This document shows positions 7,501 through 30,300 of a DNA stretch of 39,138 nucleotides, piece by piece. Source of the stretch: a virus; UHGV virus genome UHGV-0198113, one strand, 5' to 3'. Under the pieces are notes generated by a model. That model was not told the origin of the DNA and made no database searches. It worked only from the letters and a program-made list of their open reading frames with translations. A program made the translations under genes and the position numbers. Numbering within the stretch: position 1 is the stretch's first letter; each line of letters starts with the position of its first letter.

Positions 7501-8758
7501 TTCCTTTACCGGTTTTCAGTTTAGCGACGCCTTTTTCAGTCAGAGTCGCTTTTTGAGGGTCGATAACCCCTACGATAGGGTCAGCGCGTGAACCTTTACC
7601 CGTAAAGCTAATTCCGTTGCGACCCTCGATATACACTTTAGTGTCATCAGGGTCATTACCACCTGTCCCTTCGTCAGGGTCTTGTTGGTATTCCATTAGT
7701 GCAGTCGTTGTAAGCAACGGGTTGCCGTTTAAGGTGAGTTTATTCATCCCTAAGGCATCGCCTGTTGATTCAATACGCAACGTGTTCTTACCTGCACGCC
7801 ACTGTATGTAACGACCCGCACCTGTTCCTTCCAAGTGCCCGACCGCCAACACAACTGAACCGTTTGACTTCAACGTAAAACCATCGTTCGCAAAAATGAT
7901 TTCAGATTCACCATTTTTAGAACTGAATTGTGCACGGTTTCCTGACACCGTACAGTTGAAATTCCCATAGACCTCATCAGAAATCCAATGAGAAATATAG
8001 GTGTCAACTACCGATTGTGGTAAACGGAATGCTTTTAGTTCTTCCGTTAACGCTTTCAGACGTAAACCGTAAGCCATAAAGGTATCCGGCGTTTTGAGAT
8101 TCACCGGATGAGCTTCGATTTGTGCTACGGTTGTTTCATGAGGATTCTTTGCCGCGATATGTGCTGGGTAATTAAATGCTTGAATTTCTTTACCCAGAGC
8201 AACAACGAGTGCTTTAACCTCGGCCAGTTTATCTTTAATCAGTTGGTTTGCATCATCGGTTTTTAATTCGATATCATGAACCGCAGACGCAAGATATTTT
8301 TTATTCAGCAAATCTGCCCAAGACGTTGCAGCAGGTGTTGCTGGATAAAGCGACGGACGACCTTCTAATAACAACCAATCCGCACTAGTCGGGTTATTGA
8401 GATGTTTTACAAGCTCATCCAGAATTTCTACAAACGGATCGTAAAACGTTCCACCGAGCATTTGTCCTTCAAAAGTAACTAAACCTTTGATGGATGGGTT
8501 GATAAGGTGTACCCCACAATACACGTTGGCTGCTACCGAGTCATCCAGTTCCGTCAGCTGATATTGCAGTTCGTAATCTACCCCACGGCTCAGTGGGGTA
8601 GTTGAACCCGGCTGCTTAACGACCAGATTTTCAAAGAACGGGCGATGATCCAAAATCACCACCCGATCGTTGTTGTTTTCTGACCCGATGATACGCTCCT
8701 CTAAGAAGTGATTCTCGGCTTTCGTCCCCCGAGGATCGTAAGGATACGCTTTCATCAA
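4568..8758 (-). CDS. giant structural protein (1396 aa), tail-fibre/tailspike-like
   Basis: Track ORF; AAGGAGA RBS 8 nt upstream inside the end of the preceding gene; N-terminal 'HRPFFENLVVKQPG...GVDYELQY' motif shared with neighbours; Gly/Thr/Asn-rich composition typical of fibres. Confidence 0.8.
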   Translation of the reverse strand: MMKAYPYDPRGTKAENHFLEERIIGSENNNDRVVILDHRPFFENLVVKQPGSTTPLSRGVDYELQYQLTELDDSVAANVYCGVHLINPSIKGLVTFEGQMLGGTFYDPFVEILDELVKHLNNPTSADWLLLEGRPSLYPATPAATSWADLLNKKYLASAVHDIELKTDDANQLIKDKLAEVKALVVALGKEIQAFNYPAHIAAKNPHETTVAQIEAHPVNLKTPDTFMAYGLRLKALTEELKAFRLPQSVVDTYISHWISDEVYGNFNCTVSGNRAQFSSKNGESEIIFANDGFTLKSNGSVVLAVGHLEGTGAGRYIQWRAGKNTLRIESTGDALGMNKLTLNGNPLLTTTALMEYQQDPDEGTGGNDPDDTKVYIEGRNGISFTGKGSRADPIVGVIDPQKATLTEKGVAKLKTGKGTETTGVAATPGSLTPYSTDLSGYVPKTTLLNGKAMNDGSRQITKAELGLEHADNTADVDKPLSSALSTAVEGLAEKNHHHEWSELGIYKASQSIYGIGRYATNQNGLVEGRAVVPNILKELSARLEVVAAAIANAKEGTVTDFAAVQGAQWRFNSQGTALTVQDLKVFYLFDGNKDEATLTGAIDLQTTPMFNWFSPNNQLETTWPEAKVSKGTGITWDGIDEPPLMGYHSVPVGKTATQMGDQSVITVLAKARVKAYQSKLWVYAAGGGPVTVYINGVQVASGESPLLTVYETSPNVENYVVAIKAECSDTAKSAAVQFEIYDGDYPVYFSGPETHVELLADFVTTHVGIRHYLYVNMLTGSLYSRAEPIESNQVDPERGFIGYVDVYAGENYANKTVTFDTTFDFGTSAEIGNHVTTRNAHGLKVVDWSLTDNPRLPLLNRAIPEPRALVYRKMLTAGSGGTAVSLSRGLLTYSHGLNVKTALQLIFSTEGATPYCWFTPFNPKENSAPTFEGSFVFDVDDVGGTKALTAAPDLILCASSQGSSVGRRYVRFNLTDKTCKVGVGTVRTNETWYKTFETNDGVMLMETANETAVSATTKDVLFNGDETNPAILDLLGWGVSKDKISPVHAPRGMIRYRYNVQTRVLRLALSFSQFNTTAVKQRQVEFQLPFDLVDYFAGDGVGLAFSELSEKCRLTISHGLIDPVTSNIDIDKYHYLRGLFESYVDSSIGQLSDARDADYAQTAIDPASYEIKSEFRFTEAIGLPLGQGVASLSHEGQLPAQFYDRKLARGALVSQNSTWNNAWSTTSPASDKHRGNLILRFAQGVSKAHYRIARVSGTIKSNWPGKVIIGDAQKDAFLSATDIVEFALSTSSDVGKAISLTPVDLRAGQDLYIVLELPGDNPEGYELNFSCNLEIFDETNTRQDQLNVQSFEVRSGDEQVMITKRNPYHITSKAWKWILAVLKRELNGKQLGDRT

Positions 8759-8768
8759 AAAATTCTCC

Positions 8769-11700
8769 TTAATCGCGAATAATCACCGCGTTGAGTTTAT
8801 TGTTTTCACCCAAGAACGACATGACACGCTCCTTGTTCAGATAAGGAGGGATCGGTAACGCGTTATAATCGGCTAAATTATCATCAAACTCTTTTGCTAC
8901 CAGCGCGTTTAGCGTCTCAGGATCTGAGCTTGGGCCAGCTGTCTCAATGAGGCGTGCGCGGTTTAATGCAGAATAGTTAGCGATATAATCCAATAGCGTT
9001 CCGTACGATTTATTTGCTGTTATGCTATCAGCAGTGGTACGGAGGTTGGCGCGTACCTCGTCGTCATAAAGTCCCCCTAAACCGTAATAGATAGGGGTAT
9101 AAGGATCGTTAACAATGGGTGAAATATCTAACTCACCTAGACGATCAGTTAACGAAATTTTCTGAGTTGTTCCGCCCGCTGCGGTGCAGCTTACGTATTT
9201 ATCTACATCTGACAAATACACAACGATGGTATAAACCGTTCCTGCTAGTGTTAACGTCGCATTAAACGTCACATCGTTGTTCGCGCCGCGTCTGTGGGTA
9301 AATGTGATATCGGGTTGTAATGTACTCCAAGGGGCAGGTGTAACACGCTTCGTTGGTGTAAAACCAAGAACAACCGATTTCCCATTAGCGAAGTTTAACC
9401 CGAAACCTGCGTAACAATATTCGCCCTTACTGTCAGTTAAGCGGTAGCCCCTTGTCACTAAAAGAGACAAGCGAACAAACTCATTGGCATTATTCCGCCA
9501 ACAACCTAAAATCGTTTCAAGCACTGTGCCCGTTTTTGCGTTACTCTCCGTTTCCCAAGTTACACGAACACCTGCGTTCGAGAACAGCGGGAAAAGATTG
9601 TGAATAAATCCATGAACATTATCACTAACTCCCTTTGGATCAAATATCCACTTCGAAGCTAAGGAATCGTATTTTACGCCGTCGAGTGCTTTATACGTAT
9701 TCCCCATCGCAAATCGCCAATCAGCCTCACCACGTGTTACTGCTTGTAAGCCTGAAGCCCAGCAGGGCGCACCCACTGTTAAATTGCGCAAACCTAGAGC
9801 TGCACGTGGCGCACTTCTCTGAATATGCGCATTGTCGTTAGCAATATGTTCTGACAATTCCCGGAAATCACCTAAACGGGTCACGTTACGCAACTCGGTT
9901 AAGTACACTTCTGAGATATCGTTGACGCCAATCATCCCCACACGGGTCATGGTATCCGTTTCGGCTTGACTGTAACTATCGTGAATAACATAAGTCGCCC
10001 GGTTATCGACAATATCAACAAACACCCCAGCAACAATTTCCGTATTCAGTTTTGGAAAGCGCTCAGCAGTGTTTACTGTCATTAACGGCACTTGATACGT
10101 TTCCCCACCAATGAAATACGTTGTGGCGGGTAACGTAACCAGTATCTTGTCTTTTACCGTAACTTCGATTAAGTCGTTCCCAGTTTCACCGTAACGGATG
10201 ATGTCAATTCGGGCACCCGAATCTACGTTACCTACTGTTGCTTCCAGCTTCTCAATTCGAGCTGTCTGATCCATCACCACACTAGCGTCTAAAGCCAGCG
10301 TTGCATCATCGACGGCTAATCCGAATTTAATTAACCCGCGTTTATCCGTTGTTGCGTTTTCCACTCCAAACGCTGTTGACGGGTGGCGGTGAACCTTCGG
10401 TGAATATTTATCCAACTCTGTTTGTTGTGCAACAGAAATAGGTAAATCGACGTCAGGTGTGTTTGCAACGTTACCTAGGTTAAAGGTGATTTTGTCGATG
10501 GTAATAGAGCTGGTTAACGGCATGTCGTTAATGTACGATTTTACCGCGACCAATTTACCCGTAAACTCAGCATCGAGTTTTGTAATCAACGCAGGCGTCG
10601 CTGCCAGATTTTCCGCAGTACCGAACTCATCGGTTAACTGCCATCCGGCTAAGGACGTCGTATCCGTTGCGGTAGGGAGGACAAACGTTGCCACAAACGG
10701 TGACGCTTTTATTCCGTTACCTGTAATGGTTACCGTTGCTGTCGAGTTTGCGTAGAATAATCCTGTTCCACCCGCGGTATTACCTGGTAGGTAAGGCCCT
10801 ACTGTGGTGGGGTCTAAAAGTTTCTTACCACGCCACTGCAAGCCACGATCGTCAGCGTACAATACCAGCTGATTAGTCCCTGCCTGGAAAGTTACGGGGT
10901 TATTCCCTGCATTAACTTCGGTTGAACCTTGGCCAATAAACTTAATGGATTTCGGGTCAACGGCAAACTGAGCACCTAAACGGGTCTCGTCAACAACATC
11001 CGGCGCTTTCTTAATGGTAACCGTGTTACCTTTGTTTTGCGAGATAATGCTGACACTATCAGCAACGTTGTTAATCAACGTTTTAAAGTGATGTTGGTTC
11101 TCTAACGCTTCTAGCGCAGCATCCATGTTAACGAAGTTGACACGAGCGCTGTACGTCTTACCATTCACGGTAACAACGATATCAAATACGTTCCCCGTAC
11201 GTTTTAATTGGAAACGTAACGTAAAATCATCGTCAGGTATTGCAGGATCGGCGATTTGAGAAACATATTGGACTTCCGGCTGCGGATTAGCATAACCGTT
11301 CAGTTGTAAACCGATACTGACTCGACCTGACAGAACTTCACCGGTAAGTTGAATGAATTTGCCAGAGTTACTACCAGGATTTTCATAGAAGCGTAAACCA
11401 ACCATACCGACTGCTTCATTACCTGACGCTGTTTTACGTCCGGTGACAATGAAGTCAATATCTTGCAGGTTGGCAGGTACTCCATTAAAATAAGTACCAA
11501 ATCCATTCTTCGTTCCCGTATAACGAAGTGCGCCATGATACGTGTAACCATTGCTAACATAGCTTTCGCTAAAATAAGGGTTCACGTACTTAGACATCGA
11601 CACCGGATCAACTTCCGTCGTAAAGGACGTAAAGCCTGGCAGTGTTCTGATAGTTCCGTCAACCGTTTTGTTAGCTGCGGTGCGTAGCAGTTTATTCTGC

Positions 11701-13091
11701 GCTGTCAGTGTTGCCTGCGTCGGGTATTTACTGTTAACGTAATCCGTTAACTGTTGTTTCGTTTTCCCGTAAGCCAAAGCAGCATCTGACGCGATACCGT
11801 TTAACTCTAACGCACGAATCGGTCCCCACGTATCGACGTGTGGGTTATCTTTACGGGTAACGTGCTCGTGAGCTGGTGCGTTGCGGTAAAGCTGTTCCAC
11901 CAACTGATGGTATTTGACAATCAGCTGATAAACGTCATTGCTTACGTCGGCGTCTGGCGCACCAGGTAACGCAAGGAATTGTGCATAATCGTTTTCAGCC
12001 GCCCACCAGTTTAGATTAACGTTGGTTTTATATTTCAACCATTTCGCAACATCTGTTTTGCTATAACCTGCTGAGAATTCGGATGGTGGGTTATCAACGT
12101 TGAACGTGTAGTCCATCGTCTGTTTGTTAGTCGTCACCTCGATAACATACACACCGTTACCAGGCTGACGAACAACACTAAACGTTAACTCACCTTTCAA
12201 TTCGCTGTCGGTCAGTCCGTTGATTAGCGTATAGTCGTAATCGGTTGAGCCGCTTCCTAACGCTACGGTCAGGCGCAAAGAGATTTTACGCTGCTTTAAT
12301 TGAAGACGAAGGATACTTGCACCGCCATTCGCGTAGCACAACATCCAATCGATTTGTTCATTTGGGTTAATGCTTCCCATGTTCGGGAAAATACCAGGAA
12401 TACGGTATTTCATCGACAGGGAGTAGTCATTTAACGTCGTGGTTTTGTACGTAACGGCAAAACGGCGTTTTGTAGTGTTGTACGTATAACCGCCTTTGTT
12501 ATCGTACGTTGCATACTGTTCTGACGTGATAACCGTGCCGTTAGCACGATGCTCAATATCTAACGTGTTACGTGCAATCGGGTCTAACCGATTTACAACG
12601 TTACCTAAGGAGTCGCCTAAGCCTGCGATGGCTTGCATTAACTCCAGTTCACCTTTCCAGTTTTCCCAATCGAACTGAATGTCAACGGGTGGAAAGTAAA
12701 CGTCCCCGATAACGGTGTCCCATTGACACGTAGACGGGTATTTATCTTTATTTAACTCACGCTCTGCGCTAATCTGCTGCTGTGTGGCTTCACCACAACC
12801 AACGGCATGATAATCCACAGTAAAATTCGACTTGTATTTGTCGTTAACAATCCAAATCATCCCGTGAATGAGATAGGCTGTGCGCAACATACCTGTCTCG
12901 TACGGGTGTGTAATTACGTAATCGTCGCCTAAGGTCAGTGTTTTGCCGCCGCTCTTGACCACCAGGGACGTGGTGAAAAAAGGGGCGTGGGCAGGTACCA
13001 ACATTCGGTACTTCGTACCAATGACGGCGACCGCTTCACCGGTTATTTTATTCCCCGGTTCTTTGAAGTGTGGGTCTAGGACGACAGCCAT
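8769..13091 (-). CDS. giant structural protein (1440 aa), tail-fibre/tailspike-like
   Basis: Track ORF; AGGAG RBS; N-terminal 'HAPFFTTSLVVKSGG...GDDYVITH' motif; stops 10 nt before the next gene starts (operon). Confidence 0.8.
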   Translation of the reverse strand: MAVVLDPHFKEPGNKITGEAVAVIGTKYRMLVPAHAPFFTTSLVVKSGGKTLTLGDDYVITHPYETGMLRTAYLIHGMIWIVNDKYKSNFTVDYHAVGCGEATQQQISAERELNKDKYPSTCQWDTVIGDVYFPPVDIQFDWENWKGELELMQAIAGLGDSLGNVVNRLDPIARNTLDIEHRANGTVITSEQYATYDNKGGYTYNTTKRRFAVTYKTTTLNDYSLSMKYRIPGIFPNMGSINPNEQIDWMLCYANGGASILRLQLKQRKISLRLTVALGSGSTDYDYTLINGLTDSELKGELTFSVVRQPGNGVYVIEVTTNKQTMDYTFNVDNPPSEFSAGYSKTDVAKWLKYKTNVNLNWWAAENDYAQFLALPGAPDADVSNDVYQLIVKYHQLVEQLYRNAPAHEHVTRKDNPHVDTWGPIRALELNGIASDAALAYGKTKQQLTDYVNSKYPTQATLTAQNKLLRTAANKTVDGTIRTLPGFTSFTTEVDPVSMSKYVNPYFSESYVSNGYTYHGALRYTGTKNGFGTYFNGVPANLQDIDFIVTGRKTASGNEAVGMVGLRFYENPGSNSGKFIQLTGEVLSGRVSIGLQLNGYANPQPEVQYVSQIADPAIPDDDFTLRFQLKRTGNVFDIVVTVNGKTYSARVNFVNMDAALEALENQHHFKTLINNVADSVSIISQNKGNTVTIKKAPDVVDETRLGAQFAVDPKSIKFIGQGSTEVNAGNNPVTFQAGTNQLVLYADDRGLQWRGKKLLDPTTVGPYLPGNTAGGTGLFYANSTATVTITGNGIKASPFVATFVLPTATDTTSLAGWQLTDEFGTAENLAATPALITKLDAEFTGKLVAVKSYINDMPLTSSITIDKITFNLGNVANTPDVDLPISVAQQTELDKYSPKVHRHPSTAFGVENATTDKRGLIKFGLAVDDATLALDASVVMDQTARIEKLEATVGNVDSGARIDIIRYGETGNDLIEVTVKDKILVTLPATTYFIGGETYQVPLMTVNTAERFPKLNTEIVAGVFVDIVDNRATYVIHDSYSQAETDTMTRVGMIGVNDISEVYLTELRNVTRLGDFRELSEHIANDNAHIQRSAPRAALGLRNLTVGAPCWASGLQAVTRGEADWRFAMGNTYKALDGVKYDSLASKWIFDPKGVSDNVHGFIHNLFPLFSNAGVRVTWETESNAKTGTVLETILGCWRNNANEFVRLSLLVTRGYRLTDSKGEYCYAGFGLNFANGKSVVLGFTPTKRVTPAPWSTLQPDITFTHRRGANNDVTFNATLTLAGTVYTIVVYLSDVDKYVSCTAAGGTTQKISLTDRLGELDISPIVNDPYTPIYYGLGGLYDDEVRANLRTTADSITANKSYGTLLDYIANYSALNRARLIETAGPSSDPETLNALVAKEFDDNLADYNALPIPPYLNKERVMSFLGENNKLNAVIIRD

Positions 13092-13158
13092 TATCTACTC
13101 CTATAATCCGTGGGCGTCGAGTTCATACTATGACTTGAATCTATAGAGGAAAAGAGCT

Positions 13159-14421
13159 GTGACTACTGCTTATCAAGTGCGGCCCGACAGCGCTTTTGGC
13201 TTCTCTCGAGAGTCCCGTACCTGGGGAGCCATCGATGTCACGCAACCTTTAGCTACACTGTGTTCGGATTACCACACCTTTGAGGTCGGCCTGAGTGCGC
13301 TTGGTAAAGACTATACGTTAGTCAGCCAGTATCACCTTGCTGAATTACAAAACCGAACCGATACTTTACAAGACTGGTTGAATGAAAAAGCCGGTGTGGT
13401 TATTCCTACCTTAAAAGCAGGATTACCGAAACTGGAATTCAGCTGGGCGCATTACCAATCGATTAACGCAGACGTACCCGTTGAGTCTTACCTGTGCCCT
13501 GCGGGTTATCATTACAGTCAGGATTTCAGTCTGGATGATGCGACAGATGTGGTGATAGTCTGTGAAGACAAATGGAAAGACAAATACCGTAACGGGGTGC
13601 TATACAACATCAACGGGCAATGGGTGCCGCATCAATCTGATTCTGTTGGTGTACGATTACCTGGTGCTGGGAATATCGTTAGACGTGCAGGTACACCAGA
13701 TATCGGTTGCATGGTTTTTGATGCGCTCGGTGCGGTGAAAACATACCCGATTGCTAATCTTACCTTAAACAAACTCGACACCACGCGCGATTACTATTCA
13801 ACGTTAATGATTTCGTTGCCCGAATCCATAACCGGTAAAACCGTAGGGTTCGTTATTGGTGGGATGTTACGTTGGCTGCCTGCGAACGGTTATTTCTCCG
13901 ATCGTGCGATTATGATTTCTTTACCGAATTTCGATCTTGCGCGCACGGTGTTAGAAACACGGCGTTACTACGATTGGGATGCTATCGGTGTAGGGGATTT
14001 ATCTTCACCTGCTAACGTTCAACGAATTCGCAACCCAGAAACATTAAAAGCGCTCTTACTTCACGAATCTTCGTTTATTTTTACGGTGGATAATCCGTAT
14101 TTAGAAGAAGAGATTGTGGGCGTATCGCATAACGCGATTTGGGGACGTTGTTATCTCAAAGACCCTAACGATCCTGATTCTGAAAAACCGTTAGGCTATT
14201 TAAATAACCGATTCGGAAAGACGGTAGGTTATTGGCCTACGTGGGAAGAAGGTGAGTGGGTATTTAACACCACCGAGTTCGACAGTCAAAACTACGTATT
14301 TCGTGAAGCTCGCTGGTATAACCAGAAGAAGATTAACGATGCGCAAGCGATAGTCGGGCCCTTCGGCCCCTGGGAAAAAGTGTATTTAGAAATGCATCGT
14401 TTTCGTGCACGAAAAAAATAA
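13159..14421 (+). CDS. hypothetical protein (420 aa), GTG start
   Basis: Track ORF; GAGGA RBS upstream of GTG; followed by a strong terminator. No motif recognised. Confidence 0.6.
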   Translation: MTTAYQVRPDSAFGFSRESRTWGAIDVTQPLATLCSDYHTFEVGLSALGKDYTLVSQYHLAELQNRTDTLQDWLNEKAGVVIPTLKAGLPKLEFSWAHYQSINADVPVESYLCPAGYHYSQDFSLDDATDVVIVCEDKWKDKYRNGVLYNINGQWVPHQSDSVGVRLPGAGNIVRRAGTPDIGCMVFDALGAVKTYPIANLTLNKLDTTRDYYSTLMISLPESITGKTVGFVIGGMLRWLPANGYFSDRAIMISLPNFDLARTVLETRRYYDWDAIGVGDLSSPANVQRIRNPETLKALLLHESSFIFTVDNPYLEEEIVGVSHNAIWGRCYLKDPNDPDSEKPLGYLNNRFGKTVGYWPTWEEGEWVFNTTEFDSQNYVFREARWYNQKKINDAQAIVGPFGPWEKVYLEMHRFRARKK

Positions 14422-14427
14422 AGTAAC

Positions 14428-14470
14428 CTCCTACCCTCTTAGAGGGTAGGAGTAGCACGTTTTTTTTTTC
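14428..14470. terminator. bidirectional rho-independent terminator
   Basis: 11-bp perfect stem CTCCTACCCTC/GAGGGTAGGAG with TTA loop (14428-14452), T11 run on plus (14460-14470) and T-rich tract on minus; sits between convergent genes. Confidence 0.75.
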
Positions 14471-14472
14471 GC

Positions 14473-14682
14473 TTAGTCTTTTTTGTAGACGATCGCGTTG
14501 CCGTGCAGTTTGTTGTTACCAGAGATACCGATAACTTTAAATGCGTCACCACCGATTTTCTCGGCTTCAGCAGCCAGTTTACCGGTTACGTGGTCAACGG
14601 TATCACCAAAGGCACTAACGTTACCAATTTTCTTAAACTCTTCTGGGATATGCTCAGCAGAAGAGAACTCTTTAATAGACAT
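14473..14682 (-). CDS. DUF1471 (BhsA/YdgH/McbA-like) small protein, no signal peptide
   Basis: Track ORF; GGAGAG RBS; 'KIGNVSA...AEKIGGDAFKVIGISGNNKLHGNAIVYKK' matches the BhsA-family core as I recall it; in-frame stop 11 codons upstream rules out an N-terminal extension. Confidence 0.65.
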   Translation of the reverse strand: MSIKEFSSAEHIPEEFKKIGNVSAFGDTVDHVTGKLAAEAEKIGGDAFKVIGISGNNKLHGNAIVYKKD

Positions 14683-14753
14683 AACAGCTCTCCATTTCAG
14701 AAAAGGAATACGGGTCTAAGACCGTAGTGTGTTACAACCAAAGCATAAGATAA

Positions 14754-14773
14754 CTCCTCCCCGAAGGGAGGAG
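14754..14773 (-). terminator. C(UUCG)G tetraloop hairpin terminator for the 321-aa minus-strand gene
   Basis: 8-bp stem CTCCTCCC/GGGAGGAG; loop reads UUCG on the minus strand; T-rich tract follows in the minus direction. Confidence 0.55.
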
Positions 14774-14891
14774 AAGAGTGCGCGAAAAGAAGTGGCCTGC
14801 TTAACTAAACGATGGGTTTAAGAAAAGTGTTGATAAGAAGCTTACCAACGTCAGGTCACAATATATAAACGCAACGTAAGAAAAAGGGGAA

Positions 14892-15857
14892 TTACCGTGG
14901 ACCCGAAGTAGGACCGTGTACACCGTCGTGGATGTGTACGCTGAAAGTAATGCCCGCAATAACCGCATCTTTAACCGTAAAGATACCCACACCTTCCCCA
15001 GTACCGCCGTACTTGAAGTTTTTAGCCACTTCAAGATTACCGGTGAATTGTGCTTCATTCCCTTCTTGTTTAAAGTTCGGCGTTTTAAAGGTGGTCGAAC
15101 TCCCCGCTTCCGTTAACCAGGTTTGTGTTTTAAAGGTAACGGATTTCGATGCTTCTGTATTGCGAACTTCGCATTTCTCATTAATCGTTTTTGTTTCCAG
15201 GTTAATAGAACGCTTTGAATAAATGAACGCATCTTCTTTGTTGATGTTCACTTTTGATAGCATCGCATTCTCAAACCCGAGATCATCTTCGACCGAGTTA
15301 ATGTAATACTTGTTCCCTTTATGGTCAACGCATTGCCACGATCCGTTTGCGTTGTCAAACTGGAATAACCACGCCGCTTTCTCGCCATTCACCATACATG
15401 TTCTTAGCGTGATATGTTTGTCAATCGTCGAGACATTCAACACATACGCATTGGACAGGTCATCCGCCATTTGGTTTTCGGGGTCAGCCGACCACGCATA
15501 AACCGCATCTTCTAATCGCTTAACGTTAGCGAAATTCAAATCAATCCAAAAATAAATATCGGTTTTCCCCAAACGTAACAAGATAACGTAGTCTTCTCGT
15601 TTAACGTCAGGGGAATTAATTCGGTTGGAGTTAAACTTCCACCACTTTGCTGTTATCGTGTTACCCGTCTTAATGGTTAGGTTATCTGTTGCACCAGACG
15701 TTTCATGCGTCTTTTCAGTTGCTGAAGAAACAGATTGCACCACAGTAGGGTTAGCAAAGTTGGTTTCAATTGGTATCACTTTTACCCGATCTGTACCACG
15801 GGGTTTGTCTTCCGCGACGATACCAATTGAGAAAAAATCAACACTGGATTTCTCCAT
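14892..15857 (-). CDS. hypothetical protein (321 aa)
   Basis: Track ORF; AAGGAA RBS 7 nt upstream on minus strand. No motif recognised. Confidence 0.7.
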   Translation of the reverse strand: MEKSSVDFFSIGIVAEDKPRGTDRVKVIPIETNFANPTVVQSVSSATEKTHETSGATDNLTIKTGNTITAKWWKFNSNRINSPDVKREDYVILLRLGKTDIYFWIDLNFANVKRLEDAVYAWSADPENQMADDLSNAYVLNVSTIDKHITLRTCMVNGEKAAWLFQFDNANGSWQCVDHKGNKYYINSVEDDLGFENAMLSKVNINKEDAFIYSKRSINLETKTINEKCEVRNTEASKSVTFKTQTWLTEAGSSTTFKTPNFKQEGNEAQFTGNLEVAKNFKYGGTGEGVGIFTVKDAVIAGITFSVHIHDGVHGPTSGPR

Positions 15858-15883
15858 CGGGACGTTCCTTAGATCGGAATTGG

Positions 15884-15908
15884 TTTCAGATATATTTTAC
15901 TTAGGTGA
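15884..15908 (+). promoter_or_regulatory. conserved 25-nt motif TTTCAGATATATTTTACTTAGGTGA (copy 1), candidate phage promoter or regulatory site
   Basis: Near-identical second copy at 20208-20232 (one mismatch); both intergenic and upstream of plus-strand gene blocks. Confidence 0.4.
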
Positions 15909-16243
15909 ATAGGGACTGAAGTGCGAGTTCAGTCCCTACGGACACGTTTCTTTCGAAACGGAGTTACCACGTTATTAGGAAACAGACCAATGTCTACTGA
16001 GAAGAAAGGCGGATTGGACGAAGTCATCGAACAGTTCAAACGCTACAACCCAGCTATTCCTCGGTAATCATAGTATTACTTAAAATTTACAGATTGTCCC
16101 TTTATTCTGCTACTCGGGATACCGGTAGGGGGTAGGGGGCATTATGTATACGGATATAAATAGCGGAGGTATACGTAGTATACCGACATACTCTTCCCAG
16201 AGGAACGTAGTGACTTCCTTATTCCTTTTTAGGAGAATAATCC

Positions 16244-16996
16244 ATGCTGACAGCAGAAGTTTTTGTTAACCAATACTTAGATGAACTCTTTGCTAAGACC
16301 TATTTAGAGATCGCCTCTCCTATCGTTGAAGATTTAGTAGGTTCAAAATACCCTGCTAAATTAGTCGAAATCAAAACGGTTAAGCCTGAAAACGTTCCTA
16401 CTGACGAACCAGAGGATAAATATCGGATTACCGCTTATGCTAATAGCGTATTCAGTATTCTTAACAGCGAAACTGGTGTGATGCTTATTTACAGTATCAT
16501 TACCGAAAGCGATTTTAATTCAGTACGCTACGCTATCGAAAATCTGGCTAACATTGGACCGCTTAGCCATGACCCGACCATTATAACAGAACAGTGGGCA
16601 TTAATGTCTGTATTTGCCCACTTCCCTTTATTCCGCCACGGAATTGCATTAATTCATCGTGAATTTGAAGTACCTTACAATGCGGAACTAACGTTACTGG
16701 GTCCTGGTTTTAATCTCTACCCGTTAAGGGACGATAACGATAAGTTATACGGCGTCCATATCTACTTTAAATGCTTCGAGGAGCTGTACGTTCTTGAGTT
16801 AATTGCTTCGGATATAGTAAAAGAAATCCCAGAAGTAGAAACGATTTCCAGAAATACTCACGTGATCGAAATCAATCCCAACGATCCGATGTTGAAATAC
16901 CGTGATGAAGTCGATATACTTAGCATCGCTACTGTTAGAGGCTGGGGCGCTGCTGAAATTACCAATAACCGCTTGTTATTGTTAAAACACGCGTAA
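16244..16996 (+). CDS. hypothetical protein (250 aa); paralog-family member 1
   Basis: Track ORF; AGGAGA RBS; C-terminus '...VRGWGAAEITNNRLLLLKHA' is a diverged copy of the GW...G(K)QLLF module. Confidence 0.7.
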   Translation: MLTAEVFVNQYLDELFAKTYLEIASPIVEDLVGSKYPAKLVEIKTVKPENVPTDEPEDKYRITAYANSVFSILNSETGVMLIYSIITESDFNSVRYAIENLANIGPLSHDPTIITEQWALMSVFAHFPLFRHGIALIHREFEVPYNAELTLLGPGFNLYPLRDDNDKLYGVHIYFKCFEELYVLELIASDIVKEIPEVETISRNTHVIEINPNDPMLKYRDEVDILSIATVRGWGAAEITNNRLLLLKHA

Positions 16997-17023
16997 GTAA
17001 AAAAACCGAAAAGGAGAATAATC

Positions 17024-17578
17024 ATGTATCACGCTAAATTGAAAAATGAAATCGTTCAATCTCTTGAAAAGGGTGTTGGTGAACACTACTTTACTTGTCC
17101 TTATACCGTACTGACTAATACCATTATCTCACCGGACGTGATGGTAGTGGGTGTAACCGTACAAGCGGTGGGAGAAACACCGATGTTCCGCAGAATTCCA
17201 CGTAACACGGATATCTCTTTCAGAAGTGGGTTTACGTCTTACCTTCGAAGCTTACTGGGAGATACCGCTTGGAAAACAGGCAGTTTCTTCCACGAAGGGA
17301 AAACATCTGTGTTGGTTTATAAGGAAGGTGTTAAGTATTCGGTTGATTTTCTCTTAGCGCGTCTGTATAGCTTCTTTCCAAGCCCTACTGATTGCACGCC
17401 AGACAATCCGGGTAAGCTGTTAAATCAAGACGAAGCTGAAGCGTTGTTTGAACAACTTCGGAAAGAACATTGTAATGCTGACGACTGGGAAACCCTCATC
17501 GCTGTCGCTAAAGCGCATGGCTGGTATACCGTGCGTAAAGTAGGTAAACAATTGTTGTTCTTAGCTTATAATGTTTAA
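17024..17578 (+). CDS. hypothetical protein (184 aa); paralog-family member 2
   Basis: Track ORF; AAGGAGA RBS; C-terminus 'AHGWYTVRKVGKQLLFLAYNV'; internal related copy 'AWKTGSFFHEGKTSVLVYK'. Confidence 0.75.
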   Translation: MYHAKLKNEIVQSLEKGVGEHYFTCPYTVLTNTIISPDVMVVGVTVQAVGETPMFRRIPRNTDISFRSGFTSYLRSLLGDTAWKTGSFFHEGKTSVLVYKEGVKYSVDFLLARLYSFFPSPTDCTPDNPGKLLNQDEAEALFEQLRKEHCNADDWETLIAVAKAHGWYTVRKVGKQLLFLAYNV

Positions 17579-17589
17579 GGGATGATATC

Positions 17590-18717
17590 ATGCATATCTA
17601 CAATAACTCACCGTCGCATAGACTCTATCTTGAATTACTTTTCGAAGATTACAAGAAAGGTGTACCGAAAATACTACTCAATATCCCGTGTGCTACGCAA
17701 AATGATTTGTTCGGGCGCGTTTTTGGTTGCACCGTTAACGCTTTGCCAGAACCAATCTGTGCACCCGTGGATATTTGTGTTTTCGACGAACGCATTGAGG
17801 ATTTTCAATTCACTCTATACGCAAATGAGTCGTTACCCTACGACAAACTTTACGTCCGTGAGTTAAAATCAAATCAACGTTTAATGTATCGTGTTTACCC
17901 ATCGGAGAAATTCTCATTACTGGAGTATAAAATCAGGCGGCTGCCTTACGAGGGTGTGAAATTACTCGACCAGCAGGATATGACTTTTCTGGAAGAACTC
18001 TGTGGATTTGAAATTGAGAAGATTCACGTAATTCAAGAAATATCCCAAAACGTACCTACACGCCGCACCCCTAACGGTGGGTTTCCGTACGAGTTCATCG
18101 ACACAGGACTAAGGCTCGTAACCGAATTTAACGACGTAATGTATTACGCAGTGTGTATTGAACGTAAAGTAGTGGAGAAAGAAATGACAAGTACATTGAA
18201 AGAAGAATTAGCACAATTCATTCGTGACGTCGAAGAGAAAAGCAAGAGCGATCACATTTTCTCACAACGCTATCCTGAACTTATTGACGAAACCACCGAT
18301 AGTGTCGTCGACGGTATACGCATTTTCCCAAGTGGTCTTGCAATTTACCGACTGCCTAGCGTTAACCAGCTTAAAGTCATGGAAATGCTAAAAGACGTTT
18401 TAGCAGAAGCGGGTTGGGAATATCGTTTCGATTGCAATTTCGAAGGGATGGCGTTATTCCTTACAAAGAAAAATTATACGTTGTCAATCGATCTACCCAA
18501 AAGTCAATATTACAGTTTCTTCCCGAAAGCGGATGATCGCACTGAAAAAGAACCTGCGTTGTTACTTGATGCGGCAGAATCCAATACGCTAATGATGCAA
18601 TTGCGGTCGATTGACAAAAAGTTAAATACCGGTCATTTAACGACGATCGGTAAAGATTACGGTTGGAAATCTGTCGAATCGTACGGCAGTCAGCTGTTGT
18701 TTGTTGCTGACCTTTAA
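17590..18717 (+). CDS. hypothetical protein (375 aa); paralog-family member 3
   Basis: Track ORF; C-terminus 'DYGWKSVESYGSQLLFVADL'; internal copy 'AGWEYRFDCNFEGMALFLTK'. Confidence 0.75.
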   Translation: MHIYNNSPSHRLYLELLFEDYKKGVPKILLNIPCATQNDLFGRVFGCTVNALPEPICAPVDICVFDERIEDFQFTLYANESLPYDKLYVRELKSNQRLMYRVYPSEKFSLLEYKIRRLPYEGVKLLDQQDMTFLEELCGFEIEKIHVIQEISQNVPTRRTPNGGFPYEFIDTGLRLVTEFNDVMYYAVCIERKVVEKEMTSTLKEELAQFIRDVEEKSKSDHIFSQRYPELIDETTDSVVDGIRIFPSGLAIYRLPSVNQLKVMEMLKDVLAEAGWEYRFDCNFEGMALFLTKKNYTLSIDLPKSQYYSFFPKADDRTEKEPALLLDAAESNTLMMQLRSIDKKLNTGHLTTIGKDYGWKSVESYGSQLLFVADL

Positions 18718-18784
18718 TAAACGAAAATACACTTTCTCTAACTGCCGCGCTTTAGTCGCGGCTTTTGTTAAGAAGGAAATAGAA

Positions 18785-19558
18785 ATGAAAATCCATTTAG
18801 ATGCACTTTTTGAATCAGAACACTACGTGATTAATGGCTCGCTGGCCTCGTTGTTGCTGGACGATAAATATAATCGAACACTCCAATTGCGGTCCGTCGA
18901 ATCCGCACCAACAGAAGACGTAGGTCTTTACCAACGTGTCAATCATACCCGTGGGGAATATCGCCGATATAAACCCGACTCACTCAGCGTTAAGCTCTGG
19001 CAACTAAGTACAGGCAAAGTATTAAGTTACCACACGGTTGGCCTGTATTACGTTGAACGTGCACATCTGTGGTTAGAAGAAGTTAAAGAGATGGATTATG
19101 ATCTCTTAAGCAAAAGACTGCGCGATAACAATAACAGCTTACCGATACGTAATTATTTCTCCACAGTCGAAAATAGTCGTTGTTTCGTTTCCCGTAAATC
19201 CATGATATTGCCTGGGGTCGAAGTTCAGACGACATTAAAAGACGCGGTCGTGAAGAAAATCTTTCATGAGTCTAAACATGTCGGTTTTCGTATTTATCTA
19301 ACGCACAAAAGGCCATTTACCGTGATTAGTGTTGTTAACGTACCTGAAGGATCATCAATCATTCAAGAACTCCCTGACGCCCGTGACCGTTGCCCTAATG
19401 AGCCGCTCTACTTAATGTCAGGAACAAAATCAGCCTCGTTGATCTCTCGTTACAGCATGATAGATGTTGTTGACGCTGCTATGAAGCTAGGTTGGAAAGA
19501 AGTGCAGCAACATGGTAAACAGTTGCTGTTTATTGCAGATGTAAAACTTAATCAATAG
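18785..19558 (+). CDS. hypothetical protein (~257 aa); paralog-family member 4
   Basis: Track ORF 18701-19558 trimmed to the first ATG with an AAGGA RBS (track start is a TTG inside the previous gene); C-terminus 'KLGWKEVQQHGKQLLFIADVKLNQ'; internal copy 'LWQLSTGKVLSYH'. Confidence 0.7.
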   Translation: MKIHLDALFESEHYVINGSLASLLLDDKYNRTLQLRSVESAPTEDVGLYQRVNHTRGEYRRYKPDSLSVKLWQLSTGKVLSYHTVGLYYVERAHLWLEEVKEMDYDLLSKRLRDNNNSLPIRNYFSTVENSRCFVSRKSMILPGVEVQTTLKDAVVKKIFHESKHVGFRIYLTHKRPFTVISVVNVPEGSSIIQELPDARDRCPNEPLYLMSGTKSASLISRYSMIDVVDAAMKLGWKEVQQHGKQLLFIADVKLNQ

Positions 19559-19570
19559 TGAGGTGGTACC

Positions 19571-20152
19571 GTGTACCGATTAATAGAAATGCGAAAAGAC
19601 GTATGGTTGGAAAACCTCGTCAATGGGGAGCTAGAAGGAATTGAGCTTTCCTTACCCGAAAAGGCGGACACGGTACTGGCCTTTCTGGTAAAACAGAAAA
19701 GTAGTCTGGACCCGATAGGTATCTTTGCTGTAGAACACACCGATCCTCGTGGCCCTACGCTACGTTGTATCTGCTGCGCTATGGATAAGATTCCTGCATC
19801 GCCGTTTGTGCAATACGCACGACGTAAAGCACCAGCGGGTGGACTTTTGTGGGTATCGTTACTGCCTGACGTAAGGATCATTCGGGACGACTACTCGGCG
19901 TTTGTACAAGCCAGTAAAATCAACCTGTATAATCCGAGTGCTGAACGTACGGATATGCCCTTCAGTATTACGTTAGACGACGACGGAACGCAGGAGGGTA
20001 TCGAGTCCATTACGGAATTGGTTAACTCCTATCCAGTTGCCACTATCGAGTTAGAAAACCCGAAGCGTTTACCGCTCGGAGACTTACTCGAGTGGATAGA
20101 ACTGAACACCGAGTTTCTGGTAGGTTCTCGTTTGTATCGGTTCGATGTTTGA
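19571..20152 (+). CDS. hypothetical protein (193 aa), GTG start; possible diverged paralog
   Basis: Track ORF; GAGGTGG RBS 7 nt before GTG; C-terminus 'LEWIELNTEFLVGSRLYRFDV' loosely resembles the module. Confidence 0.6.
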   Translation: MYRLIEMRKDVWLENLVNGELEGIELSLPEKADTVLAFLVKQKSSLDPIGIFAVEHTDPRGPTLRCICCAMDKIPASPFVQYARRKAPAGGLLWVSLLPDVRIIRDDYSAFVQASKINLYNPSAERTDMPFSITLDDDGTQEGIESITELVNSYPVATIELENPKRLPLGDLLEWIELNTEFLVGSRLYRFDV

Positions 20153-20157
20153 ACGCA

Positions 20158-20188
20158 GTGGGAGCATTGCTCCCACTTTCTTTTTTGT
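20158..20188 (+). terminator. rho-independent terminator closing the paralog operon
   Basis: 8-bp stem GTGGGAGC/GCTCCCAC with 3-nt loop, followed by TTTCTTTTTT. Confidence 0.7.
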
Positions 20189-20207
20189 TCAGTACGATTA
20201 GAAATAA

Positions 20208-20232
20208 TTTCAGATATATATTACTTAGGTGA
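20208..20232 (+). promoter_or_regulatory. conserved 25-nt motif TTTCAGATATATATTACTTAGGTGA (copy 2)
   Basis: Identical to copy 1 except for one A/T; lies between a terminator and the secreted-protein cassette, about 48 nt upstream of the ATG at 20281. Confidence 0.4.
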
Positions 20233-20280
20233 GAGTTACGATTAACTCTTTTAACCTGTTAACCTTTAAGGAGTATTTCA

Positions 20281-20736
20281 ATGAAAACTTTTATCGCATT
20301 CTTAGTAACCCTTTTAACTTTCGGTCTCAATAACGCTTACGCCGCAATCGGAAGCTGGGAAGGACTTCAAAGTCCGGGAAATGCTGTTTACGAAATCGAA
20401 GACGAAAATGGGAACAGCTTGTCTATCAACTGCGATACCGCAACGGCTAATCGTAAGTTTTACGGTCGCATGGTTTGGTATTACGGTGAACCGGTCGGTT
20501 CAACTAATGCCGAAGACAACGAAATGAGTATTGTCGTAAACGGCAAAAACTATATCATTCCCACTATTGACGGCAGCGACAAAGCAGAAAAAGCTTGGGT
20601 TGCCTTCGCTAATGCTATCGCTAATGCAAAAAGCTTCGGTGTGGCTATCAACGGTAACGAAGCCGCTAACTTTATTGTAGATGGTGAGCGTCTGCCCGAA
20701 ACTTTCTTTAAGAACTGTGGACATAGCCGTCCTTGA
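20281..20736 (+). CDS. small exported protein with signal peptide (151 aa)
   Basis: Track ORF; AAGGAG RBS; N-terminal hydrophobic signal 'MKTFIAFLVTLLTFGLNNAYAA'; two Cys; paralog of the next gene. Confidence 0.8.
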   Translation: MKTFIAFLVTLLTFGLNNAYAAIGSWEGLQSPGNAVYEIEDENGNSLSINCDTATANRKFYGRMVWYYGEPVGSTNAEDNEMSIVVNGKNYIIPTIDGSDKAEKAWVAFANAIANAKSFGVAINGNEAANFIVDGERLPETFFKNCGHSRP

Positions 20737-20773
20737 TAAATAACTTAATTTTTAAACTAAAAGGAATATAACC

Positions 20774-21244
20774 ATGAAACTGTCTAACATCTTCTTAGCT
20801 ATCGTTTTAACTGTAAGCGCCACTGCTGCACAGGCCATTCCGAACATGTGGGGTAGTGGCTTTGCAATGGGTGAAACCGAGTATGGTATCGATAACGGTG
20901 GATGGGGTATTACCATTAGCTGTACCGGTAATCCAGATGAAAACAACATTTTACCACACAAGATCTTTATCTCTAAAGATGGTAATGTGGTGGCCAACTC
21001 GGAAGATAACGACATTAGTTTCGTTATCGATGGTGAAGAGTTCTGGGGTGTAGTTCCTGACGGCACACGTAATACCGACAATACTTGGGTTAGTTTTGTA
21101 AAAGCAATCTCTACAGCAACTGAGTTTGACTTATACCTCGACCAGAAAAAGGTTGCTACCTTTAACCCATCAGCCAAAAACGTTAAGAAAGTGATGGACG
21201 GTAACTTCCTCGAATCTTGCTGGAACACCGAATACGAACAATAA
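20774..21244 (+). CDS. small exported protein with signal peptide (156 aa), paralog of 20281-20736
   Basis: Track ORF; signal 'MKLSNIFLAIVLTVSATAAQA'; shared segments (I-x-C, SEDN/AEDN, VVNG/VIDG, WV[AS]F, C near the C-terminus). Confidence 0.8.
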   Translation: MKLSNIFLAIVLTVSATAAQAIPNMWGSGFAMGETEYGIDNGGWGITISCTGNPDENNILPHKIFISKDGNVVANSEDNDISFVIDGEEFWGVVPDGTRNTDNTWVSFVKAISTATEFDLYLDQKKVATFNPSAKNVKKVMDGNFLESCWNTEYEQ

Positions 21245-21251
21245 TTACAGG

Positions 21252-21267
21252 AAAAAAAGGGGGGGGG
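21252..21267. repeat. homopolymer tract A7G9 in an intergenic region
   Basis: Direct reading: A run 21252-21258, G run 21259-21267, overlapping a weak hairpin (GGGGAC/GTCCCC) and about 25 nt upstream of the RBS of the next gene. Confidence 0.8.
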
Positions 21268-21304
21268 ACTTCGTGGTCCCCGTTCTATTTAAGGAGTGCG
21301 TGAA

Positions 21305-21691
21305 ATGAATATTAAAACTATACTTTATACTATCATTATTTTCTGCGCTATCGGTATTACCGGTACGTACGCTTTCGGTGAATCGGATATCCGCTACTAC
21401 GACCCAGCACCAGATTCCCCAATTATTAATCCTGATGAAACACCAACACTAATGCGGAGCTTCGGTAAACTAGAGGTGTACCGCCTGATGCGTGACAGTA
21501 CATGCACCGGACTAATCATTGCCGATAACGGCGCACGTGTCTATCAACGTCTAACTGATATTGCTTGCGAACAACCAAAAGTCATGTCGGTTAGTATTCA
21601 CCCGTTATCAGTTGGTAATTATACCGCTGTAGATTTCTTTCATAATGCCGAATTAATCGGTCGTGTTACTTTAAATCGCCCTGCTGAATAA
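21305..21691 (+). CDS. small exported protein with signal peptide (~128 aa)
   Basis: Track ORF 21296-21691 trimmed to the ATG 8 nt after AAGGAG; hydrophobic N-terminus 'MNIKTILYTIIIFCAIGITGTYAFG'; Cys-containing. Confidence 0.7.
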   Translation: MNIKTILYTIIIFCAIGITGTYAFGESDIRYYDPAPDSPIINPDETPTLMRSFGKLEVYRLMRDSTCTGLIIADNGARVYQRLTDIACEQPKVMSVSIHPLSVGNYTAVDFFHNAELIGRVTLNRPAE

Positions 21692-21709
21692 TCTAAAGGA
21701 GTAGTTACG

Positions 21710-22195
21710 ATGAAACGTTTACACACACTGATGTTCTTTCTGGCTTTCATGTTTATCGGTGTTACACCAACTGTTGATGCAGCATCAGTGAAAGATGCGC
21801 TTACATGCGACACCAACGCATGGGACGGACAACCTAACGCGTGTCCAAACATCAACGACGTGTACGATACCGATAAGTCATTTAAAGCGGTTGTTGATAA
21901 AACACTGGACCCGGTAGGATTGAATGGTATGTTCGGTGCTAAAGGTTACATGGATGGCCCCGGCGGTGCGATGTACCCGGTAAACATTAATAACAAAATC
22001 TGGATTGAAAGTGGTGGCTGTAAAGCTAACGCTTGTGGCTGGGAATATATCGTAACGTTATACAACCCACAAACCAACGAACTCGTCGGTTATTACTACA
22101 ACATCGACCCCGGTTACCTGATTTGGTTCGGTGATATCGGTGTTGCTGAATTCGCTTATCTGGTTAAGAAATACGCGGAACAATCTAAATACTAA
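21710..22195 (+). CDS. exported Cys-containing protein (161 aa); possible Ivy-like periplasmic inhibitor
   Basis: Track ORF; AAGGAG RBS; signal 'MKRLHTLMFFLAFMFIGVTPTVDAA'; 'GGCKANACGWEY' is a CKxxxCG loop like the Ivy CKPHDCG motif (from memory). Confidence 0.75.
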   Translation: MKRLHTLMFFLAFMFIGVTPTVDAASVKDALTCDTNAWDGQPNACPNINDVYDTDKSFKAVVDKTLDPVGLNGMFGAKGYMDGPGGAMYPVNINNKIWIESGGCKANACGWEYIVTLYNPQTNELVGYYYNIDPGYLIWFGDIGVAEFAYLVKKYAEQSKY

Positions 22196-22206
22196 GGACG
22201 TTTATC

Positions 22207-22617
22207 ATGAAAAATATCATCAACACGCTTCTCGTTGCGATCGCTGTTCTCTTCACTGCTAACGTGACAGCAAAAACAATAAAATTACCGGATGGTATCA
22301 AATACGTCAACAGTACCGATGATTTCTACTGTACAGAAATCGATGGTTTGTACTGCCAGACGAAGAATCTGTTTAAATACAAAGGTAACAGATACGTATT
22401 CGTTGTTGAGCAAGGCGGTGCCTGGTGCTACGACAGCCCTATGTCGGTACTTAACCTCGAAACGTGGAAAGCCCAACGTCTCGAATACAACGACAAGCGT
22501 CTGTGCTCTGGAAATAACAAACCGTTCTTCCAAGTCGTAGATGGTGTGCCGTGGGTAGGGATATTAGACACCTCTGAAAAATCTATCGTTGTGGCTATGG
22601 ATAAACTTAAAATTTAA
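22207..22617 (+). CDS. small exported protein with signal peptide (136 aa), 4 Cys
   Basis: Track ORF; signal 'MKNIINTLLVAIAVLFTANVTA'; Cys spacing similar to the next gene product. Confidence 0.75.
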   Translation: MKNIINTLLVAIAVLFTANVTAKTIKLPDGIKYVNSTDDFYCTEIDGLYCQTKNLFKYKGNRYVFVVEQGGAWCYDSPMSVLNLETWKAQRLEYNDKRLCSGNNKPFFQVVDGVPWVGILDTSEKSIVVAMDKLKI

Positions 22618-22627
22618 GGAGTAACTC

Positions 22628-23017
22628 ATGCGTTTCATTTGCGCTTTAGCATTCTTCTTCTCTCTGAGCGTAACTGCTTCTACCCAGGTTAACGATTTAC
22701 TGCTGACAGCAAACAACAACGACGATTATCAGTACAATCCACCCAGTTTTGAAGTCTGTGAGAATGGAGAAACAACCTGTCAAGAAGTCGGCGCAGATGG
22801 GCGCTACATTCTGGTGAAAGCCGACGGGGGCGCGATGTGCCCAGCCGGTTACTATTTCCTACTTGATTCTGTCGCAAAAGAGGTTCTTCCTATCACTACG
22901 AAAACGTGCGACCCTACTGTTGTCTTATCGCTTGCTAAAAGCAAATCTCGCGACCGTTACTTAATCGTTATCGAAGAACGCGGTGAGATGGCAGGCGCTA
23001 TCGAATTAGATTACTGA
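22628..23017 (+). CDS. small exported protein with signal peptide (129 aa), 4 Cys
   Basis: Track ORF; AAGGAG RBS; signal 'MRFICALAFFFSLSVTAS'; Cys pattern C-x6-C...C...C. Confidence 0.75.
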   Translation: MRFICALAFFFSLSVTASTQVNDLLLTANNNDDYQYNPPSFEVCENGETTCQEVGADGRYILVKADGGAMCPAGYYFLLDSVAKEVLPITTKTCDPTVVLSLAKSKSRDRYLIVIEERGEMAGAIELDY

Positions 23018-23029
23018 GTGTAGTCTTGG

Positions 23030-23065
23030 CCCCGGTACGTTCCGATTCGTCCGGGGTCCTTTTTA
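23030..23065 (+). terminator. rho-independent terminator (bulged GC-rich stem + T tract)
   Basis: CCCCGG...CCGGGG stem followed by TCCTTTTTA, directly after the stop at 23017. Confidence 0.5.
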
Positions 23066-23094
23066 CGACTTGTTATACCTAAAGGAGAATTATC

Positions 23095-23571: not shown

Positions 23572-23580
23572 TTAGCCCGG

Positions 23581-23608
23581 CCCCGACCACGTTCGGGGTT
23601 TCTTTTTT
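23581..23608 (+). terminator. rho-independent terminator
   Basis: CCCCGA/TCGGGG stem followed by TTTCTTTTTT. Confidence 0.55.
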
Positions 23609-23628
23609 GATTTAAAAGGAAATGCCAG

Positions 23629-30296: not shown

Positions 30297-30300
30297 TCCC

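Follow-up and report, generated by a model that had tools for sequence, protein, structure and literature searches.

The nearest described counterparts of the element reported here are the early promoters of phiKZ-type jumbo phages. According to a review of jumbo-phage RNA polymerases (RNAPs), an AT-rich motif of ∼10 nt, centred at about −10, can be detected bioinformatically upstream of the early operons of every RNAP-encoding jumbo phage, and wherever transcripts have been mapped it has proved to be the early promoter that the virion polymerase uses. The same picture is given for 201phi2-1, with conservation at −10, −20, and −30, and PHIKZ054 is reported to have both an early motif and a primary transcription start site. 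The early (virion-RNAP) promoters of phiKZ, 201phi2-1, OBP, and N1M2 are described in Ceyssens 2014 (as cited in PMC7598289), PMC8244752, PMC11512511, and PMC7058600. The predicted consensus sequences, as tabulated in the N1M2 paper, are TATATTAC for phiKZ, TTAWTAVAA_HYWTTTRARR_BTATATTACDWHDGTG for 201phi2-1, BSHAWWWWWTTTYARRYAKATATTATYWWADTG for OBP, and TBYAWWWWWTTTCARRYAKATATTATYWAAGTGWA for N1M2 (31 sites), the last also given in the shorter form ...WWWWWTTTCARRYAKATATTATYWAAGTGWA. Salmonella phage SPN3US has a head-associated virion RNAP (vRNAP; gp42, gp218, gp240, gp241, and gp244) and a separate nvRNAP (gp34/35 and gp77). Stem-loops accompany promoters in other phages: composite early-promoter/stem-loop cassettes of T4-type phages are termed PeSL (PMC2839356, PMC4122927), and in N4, where the enzyme is a single subunit, the recognition element is a DNA hairpin, upstream of the start site, whose stem and loop are conserved (PMC4496689).

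The DNA analyzed here (UHGV-0198113; 39,138 nucleotides, hereafter the window) is not a T7-like genome but 39 kb from the genome of an uncultivated jumbo phage, in synteny with SPN3US and with the Erwinia phages phiEaH2 and Asesino. Its gene order is that of SPN3US at ∼150–185 kb. Two ORFs of 1,400 residues (4568–13091) correspond to virion structural proteins, and the minus-strand ORF 14892–15857, which starts at 15857, encodes a baseplate protein that is 62–74% identical to its counterparts in the Erwinia phages phiEaH2, Stratton, and Asesino and in SPN3US-like Salmonella phages. At the nucleotide level, known phages show almost no match to the window except for ∼75–105 nt around the second motif copy described below, a stretch whose hits, in 33 jumbo-phage records, fall in intergenic DNA without annotation. 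One scaffold from a metagenome (ENA ERZ28629076, sample MEHT18-1_SAMN06164670, scaffold_105; L058) is 100% identical to the window over 27891–39138 (11,248 nt) and adds 9.5 kb on the right. No RNAP gene was found in the resulting 48.6 kb of this genome, and possession of a vRNAP by this phage would follow from its relatives, by synteny with SPN3US. Positions 1–4567 contain no complete ORF of convincing length on either strand and probably represent the 3′ portion of a very large gene on the minus strand that runs past the left end, a homologue of the SPN3US gene at 145536–150719. Assignment to a T7/SP6-like podovirus, suggested by the window length and by the sequence TTAGGTGA, was ruled out, as megablast, tblastn, and PHROG comparisons all place the window among SPN3US-/Erskinevirus-like jumbo phages.

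The preliminary description of this DNA drew attention to a 25-nt intergenic motif present twice in plus orientation with one mismatch, and both positions were confirmed exactly (Table 1). The motif reads TTTCAGATATAT[T/A]TTACTTAGGTGA; copy 1 carries T at the variable position, a variant that is common among related instances. A search of both strands of the window with up to three mismatches found no third copy, and no match arose in any of 100 dinucleotide-preserving shuffles. The weak likeness of the two copies continues 5′ of the motif, where GATCGGAATTGG at copy 1 matches GATTAGAAATAA at copy 2 in 7 of 12 positions. Given this upstream likeness, the functional unit is somewhat longer than 25 nt.

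Table 1. Features at and around the two motif copies and the weaker related sites. Positions are those of the window unless prefixed with L058.
Feature	Position	Strand	Details
Copy 1, strong ("class A") early-promoter motif	15884–15908	+	TTTCAGATATATTTTACTTAGGTGA; core TATTTTAC at 15893–15900
Predicted transcription start region, copy 1	15905–15908	+	GTGA; inferred
Hairpin directly after copy 1	15910–15938	+	Stem TAGGGACTGAA/TTCAGTCCCTA, loop GTGCGAG; predicted 5′-terminal stem-loop
Small ORF, 25 codons	15990–16067	+	MSTEKKGGLDEVIEQFKRYNPAIPR; first start after copy 1, 81 nt past the motif; Shine-Dalgarno AGGAAA
Conserved leader	16066–16243	+	...GGGGG..GGGGG..GCGGAGGT-hairpin-ACCGACAT...
Five-gene block	16244–20152	+	Presumably transcribed from copy 1
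Intrinsic-terminator-like hairpin and T-run	20157–20186	+	Hairpin 20157–20177, then TTCTTTTTTG; closes the 16244–20152 block
Copy 2 with upstream element	20191–20237	+	25-nt motif TTTCAGATATATATTACTTAGGTGA at 20208–20232; core TATATTAC at 20217–20224
A/T-rich upstream element of copy 2	20196–20211	+	GATTAGAAATAATTTC
Predicted transcription start region, copy 2	20229–20232	+	GTGA; inferred
Hairpin directly after copy 2	20233–20248	+	GAGTTA-CGAT-TAACTC
Shine-Dalgarno and first copy-2 gene	20267–20736	+	AAGGAG at 20267–20272; gene 20281–20736, 151 aa, phrog_3429
"Class B" site	28985–29006	+	TAAATAGATATTATCATTAGGG; before transglycosylase-like ORF 29065; orthologue of SPN3US 174933
"Class B" site	37848–37869	+	TAGATAGATATTATCCAGGTGT; 22 nt before ORF 37891; orthologue of SPN3US 184023
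Looser site	L058:18141–18162	+	In the right-hand extension of this genome

The sequence of copy 2, AATAATTTCAGATATATATTACTTAGGTGAG, fits the N1M2, OBP, 201phi2-1, and phiKZ consensus sequences almost base for base. Both window copies combine the core of phiKZ-type early promoters (TATATTAC or KATATTAY) with the characteristic flanks, TTTCARRYA on the 5′ side and W.AGTG on the 3′ side, and like those promoters have an A/T-rich block upstream; at copy 1 this upstream element is poor (GATCGGAATTGG). In the first 50 kb of phiKZ (positions 1–50 kb), the core TATATTAC occurs seven times on the plus strand and never on the minus strand, each time 35–73 nt before an annotated start, and one of the seven sites precedes PHIKZ054. 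An independent matrix was built from these seven phiKZ sites alone and compared with 50 shuffles. Copy 2 ranked first in the window with a score of 17.2, against a maximum of 14.9 among the shuffles. Copy 1 ranked second with a score of 8.0, which lies inside the shuffle range (mean 3.8, maximum 14.9), and third came the weaker related site at 37848–37869. When the same matrix was applied to SPN3US, the top six hits were exactly its six strong sites. The proposal that the motif is a promoter for a phage-specific polymerase thus gains support from the published consensus, from the phiKZ-only matrix, and from the co-oriented recurrence of the motif 5′ of genes in relatives.

This recurrence is extensive. 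The exact pattern AGATATATWTTACYTAGGTGA gave 49 matches in 14 jumbo-phage contigs of IMG/VR, with 1–6 matches per contig and all on the same strand within each contig, and every complete relative has 2–6 exact copies. Of bacterial and archaeal genomes totalling 596 Gb, only a single exact match was returned, on a 2.3-kb MAG contig. BLAST with the 85 nt around copy 2 detected 315 places in 66 phage records (4–6 per genome), the records carrying the motif belonging to Seoulvirus, Erskinevirus, other Erwinia jumbo phages, and Cronobacter phage CR5. In the 9.5 kb added to this genome no further strong copy was found, and window and extension together hold two strong and three weak sites.

Alignment of 51 unique related instances revealed a fixed module that often opens with a strong hairpin and T-run and then comprises an A/T-rich element (GATTAAAAATAATTTC), the invariant core, a directly adjoining short hairpin, a CGACTAT box that is only loosely conserved, AAGGAG, and a start codon. 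The motif is oriented toward the downstream gene in all 51, a Shine-Dalgarno sequence and start codon lie 35–62 nt 3′ of it in 47, and in about half a hairpin with T-run precedes it, giving a terminator-then-promoter order. Comparison of orthologous intergenic regions from the window, SEGD1, and pEa_SNUABM_29 showed diverged flanks around 25 invariant nucleotides. In SPN3US, an iterated matrix found 23 plus-strand sites, seven of them strong or near-strong, against 0–1 in shuffles, and all seven lie in annotated intergenic gaps before small hypothetical genes; copy 2 is orthologous to the SPN3US site at 165666–165712, before RefSeq gp086. Multiple co-oriented copies placed shortly 5′ of the first gene of an operon are typical of phiKZ-type early promoters, and this arrangement was found here. 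The likeness extends to the operons themselves, which consist of small genes without assigned function, to a similar distance from the start codon, and to phage specificity. The strong subclass described here differs in being far more uniform, with ∼22 nt invariant across several genera.

The local context of both copies conforms to the initial observation that each is preceded by a terminator or divergent junction and followed by a plus-strand gene block. Copy 2 lies 31 nt after the terminator-like hairpin and 48 nt before the ATG at 20281, and the small genes after 20736 continue to another terminator-like hairpin at 23579–23600. The first two genes after copy 2 (20281–21244, plus strand) are tandem paralogues, both assigned to phrog_3429, and the first of them opens with the signal-peptide-like sequence MKTFIAFLVTLLTFGLNNAYA. 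None of the ten proteins encoded between 16244 and 22617 has a Pfam domain. The 5′ untranslated regions of strong sites share the box AATCGACTATTAAYCTAAAGGAG, which at copy 2 reads TTAACCTGTTAACCTTTAAGGAG (20251–20272, plus strand). This sequence resembles the translational enhancer of T7 gene 10.

Copy 1 is located in the divergent gap between the start of the minus-strand baseplate gene and the plus-strand block, and it had initially been ambiguous which strand it serves. Given that all 51 related instances face a downstream gene, copy 1 can by analogy be assigned to the plus strand. The coding status of the small ORF at 15990–16067 is uncertain: it differs from the corresponding sequence of the relative L014 by two non-synonymous changes and one synonymous change, and tblastn found no homologue in the phage collection. 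The leader that follows is probably structured. It is 98–99% identical between the window and L014 even though the next ORF is unrelated, and it can be recognized in Asesino, phiEaH2, and SPN3US, where its GGT-stem-ACC hairpin shows compensatory changes; a second hairpin (AGGAACGTAGTGACTTCCT) is also present, and counterparts of the element lie at L027:1902–2080, L028:1827–2006, and L025:11413–11595. At the nucleotide level, 15909–16243 matched the phage collection only over 50 nt of Asesino. Rfam gave no match at gathering score in the whole window and none at E ≤ 1 in 15800–16300, and no tRNA was found in the window. The window (from 16244) and L014 (from 6480), its closest relative, cease to be related precisely where the next ORF has its start codon, indicative of gene replacement. 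In the 16244–20152 block no Pfam domain was found, and the only PHROG matches were to families without assigned function.

In Asesino, phiEaH2, and SPN3US, the same element (TCATACTAT...GGGGG..GGGGG..GCGGAGGT-hairpin-ACCGACAT) abuts the start codon of the baseplate gene, and the strong motif is absent from this junction, a looser site following the next gene instead. Because the conserved junction element is displaced, starting at 16066 in the window and likewise in L014, a stretch of ∼195 nt (within 15858–16065) with copy 1, the hairpin after it, and the small ORF looks like an insertion relative to these three phages. The junction element could be a leader or a noncoding RNA, or could contain the region in which the baseplate gene has its late promoter; a TATG lies within it on the minus strand at ∼16071–16074.

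A short hairpin directly follows each copy, with an MFE of −17.3 (z = −4.2) after copy 1 and of −6.9 (z = −2.1) after copy 2. Among strong instances, the hairpin begins 0–5 nt after the G of GTGA in 24 of 26, with at least 10 different stems and a mean z of −2.5 versus shuffles. In L014 the copy 1 hairpin shows a compensatory change from A:T to G:C. The loop of this hairpin (15921–15927, GTGCGAG) is present in L014 as its reverse complement, CTCGCAC, a loop inversion. In SPN3US, a hairpin is found at seven of seven strong sites (mean z = −2.3), compared with a mean z of −0.4 at the looser sites, and at the phiKZ sites an adjacent hairpin is mostly absent, so that the directly adjacent hairpin sets the strong subclass apart from both phiKZ sites and weaker sites. 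Here, N4 offers a partial parallel, with early transcription by a polymerase that arrives with the virion and a hairpin linked to the promoter. A hairpin promoter of the N4 type was nevertheless ruled out, the hairpin in the present case being 3′ of the conserved motif with a stem that varies freely between copies. Given that the stem is variable and lies 3′ of the core, the hairpin is more likely a 5′-terminal stem-loop that stabilizes the early mRNA than a DNA recognition element. At the SPN3US orthologue of copy 2 (165666–165790; L025:15666–15790), the 5′ hairpin is followed by a terminator-like hairpin and T-run before the gene, an arrangement that suggests a short RNA or attenuator, like the 5′ untranslated region terminators reported for phiKZ.

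Looser sites of the form AGATAGATATTATC..G.G, which is partly palindromic, precede other genes. In SPN3US the sites form a continuum from the strong form CAGATATATATTAC[C/T]TAGGTGAG to the looser AGATAGATATTATCT..GTGA, both within the published degenerate consensus. The iterated matrix drifted from the strong motif to palindrome-like AGATAGATATTATCT sites, and the two classes were thereafter treated separately. The looser sites may represent a tier of the same family of promoters that is weaker or differs in its timing. It is conceivable, and offered here tentatively, that the strong motif is the top tier, a near-invariant cassette (A/T-rich element, 22-nt core, 5′ hairpin, CGACTAT box, and AAGGAG) present in several genera of enterobacterial jumbo phages and separate from the AGATAGATATTATC sites before nvRNAP operons. 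Such a cassette might define an immediate-early class whose mRNAs are specially stabilized or handled (for example in the early-infection vesicle) and might move between loci in the manner of PeSL.

Other explanations for the strong motif were weighed against a promoter read by a phage polymerase. The A/T-rich character of the site recalls the early promoters of many phages, which are sigma-70 promoters, and the family consensus can be read as TTGATT, a 17-nt spacer, and TATATT, as would suit a strong host promoter used by the host polymerase right after DNA entry. The −35 positions of the two copies, however, read ACGATT and GATCGG, neither of which is acceptable, and a scan of 13000–24000 (each hexamer matching in at least 4 of 6 positions, spacer of 16–18 nt) called no sigma-70 promoter at either copy. 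Furthermore, the invariant CAGATA, TTAC, and TTAGGTGA occupy positions at which sigma-70 has no requirement, bacterial genomes essentially lack the motif, and its homologue in phiKZ and 201phi2-1 serves as the early promoter in a transcription programme independent of the host. A host sigma-70 promoter is accordingly regarded as very improbable. The other possibility raised at the outset, a binding site for a phage repressor or activator, may be considered together with an RNA-level signal such as a processing site in a longer transcript. Twenty-five invariant nucleotides exceed the needs of most promoters, an AU-rich stretch with a hairpin resembles RNase E sites, and one SPN3US copy precedes a gene for an HTH protein. 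Against this, the strong motif shows no dyad symmetry, its orientation and its spacing from the start codon are promoter-like, and its sequence is that of the start-site-linked promoters of phiKZ and 201phi2-1. Moreover, because many copies directly follow an intrinsic terminator, transcription must restart at the motif. Given the evidence for a promoter, a regulator-binding site is not needed, and this kind of explanation seems, if anything, slightly more remote than that of a sigma-70 promoter.

Spread of the motif as a mobile promoter cassette that mediates gene shuffling by recombination is compatible with promoter function and would explain the extra conservation. As with PeSL of T4, a terminator-like stem-loop and an early promoter flank small variable ORFs: the ∼195-nt apparent insertion, at a junction that Asesino, phiEaH2, and SPN3US also have, comprises copy 1 with its hairpin and the small ORF, the ORF that follows the conserved leader is wholly different between the window and L014 in an apparent replacement of the adjacent gene, and strong sites share the whole module from upstream element to AAGGAG. 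The T4 PeSL promoters differ in being sigma-70 early promoters read by the host polymerase, and the shuffling role is putative here. Mobility is not established by a single case of insertion, copy 2 stands at a conserved orthologous position, and hairpins and terminators differ between copies in one genome, such that the shared part is mostly promoter. A mobile cassette is on balance possible but doubtful. The motif also invites comparison with T7 and SP6 promoters, which are likewise long (∼23 nt), near-invariant, phage-specific, and overlapping with the start site. The transcripts of T7 class III leaders begin with a 5′ stem-loop, as is predicted here. No sequence relation exists, however, between these promoters and the motif: the T7 and SP6 promoter consensus sequences are TAATACGACTCACTATAG and ATTTAGGTGACACTATAG, and only TTAGGTGA is shared with the SP6 promoter. 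In relatives of this jumbo myovirus, the encoded RNAPs are multisubunit enzymes of the split beta/beta′ type, not T7-like ones. A promoter of the T7/SP6 type was ruled out, the window being syntenic with a 240-kb jumbo myovirus in which only beta/beta′-like RNAP genes are annotated.

The reading we prefer, and consider highly probable from the sequence comparisons, is that each copy is an early promoter of a jumbo phage related to phiKZ (SPN3US/Erskinevirus-like) and is most likely read by a virion-packaged multisubunit RNAP. With respect to the initial alternatives of a phage-specific polymerase or sigma factor, the reader of the motif would be an enzyme of the phiKZ/SPN3US type and not a sigma factor or a T7-like enzyme. 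Looser sites in SPN3US directly precede both nvRNAP operons, at 28948 before gp34/35 and at 72663 before gp76/77. Given that the nvRNAP cannot be the first to transcribe its own operons, these looser sites, taken with the precedent of phiKZ, favor the virion enzyme. This argument is suggestive only; not all nvRNAP genes of 201phi2-1 have early promoters.

According to this model of a virion-read promoter, the vRNAP would be packaged in the virion, ejected with the DNA, and recognize both copies. The enzyme would read the core TAT(A/T)TTAC at about −10, the flanking CAGATA and TTAGGTGA, and the upstream A/T-rich element. Because the core is centred at about −10 and the 201phi2-1 consensus ends in TATATTAC-DWHD-GTG, transcription is predicted to start at or next to the GTGA of each copy, a placement that rests on the published wording "centred at about −10" for phiKZ-type phages. 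Early in infection, copy 1 would drive a long leader, comprising the hairpin, the possible small ORF, and the conserved leader, and then the five-gene block, with the transcript ending at the terminator at 20157–20177; copy 2 would re-initiate transcription for the next block of small genes without assigned function. Transcripts of the strong subclass would open with a short stem-loop that may protect the 5′ end of the early mRNA.

Both this family of promoters and its connection to virion RNAPs have been described before, and as a discovery the present finding is modest; only the strong subclass, uniform and provided with a 5′ hairpin, and the possible behavior as a cassette go beyond the descriptions found. 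The motif provides an annotation rule for early transcription units in SPN3US-/Erskinevirus-like jumbo phages and in metagenomic fragments, and it predicts start sites (Table 1) that are directly testable. The strong subclass with its 5′ hairpin could serve as a compact part for vRNAP-dependent expression, and could mark the genes that are expressed first of all after ejection, the majority of them without known function.
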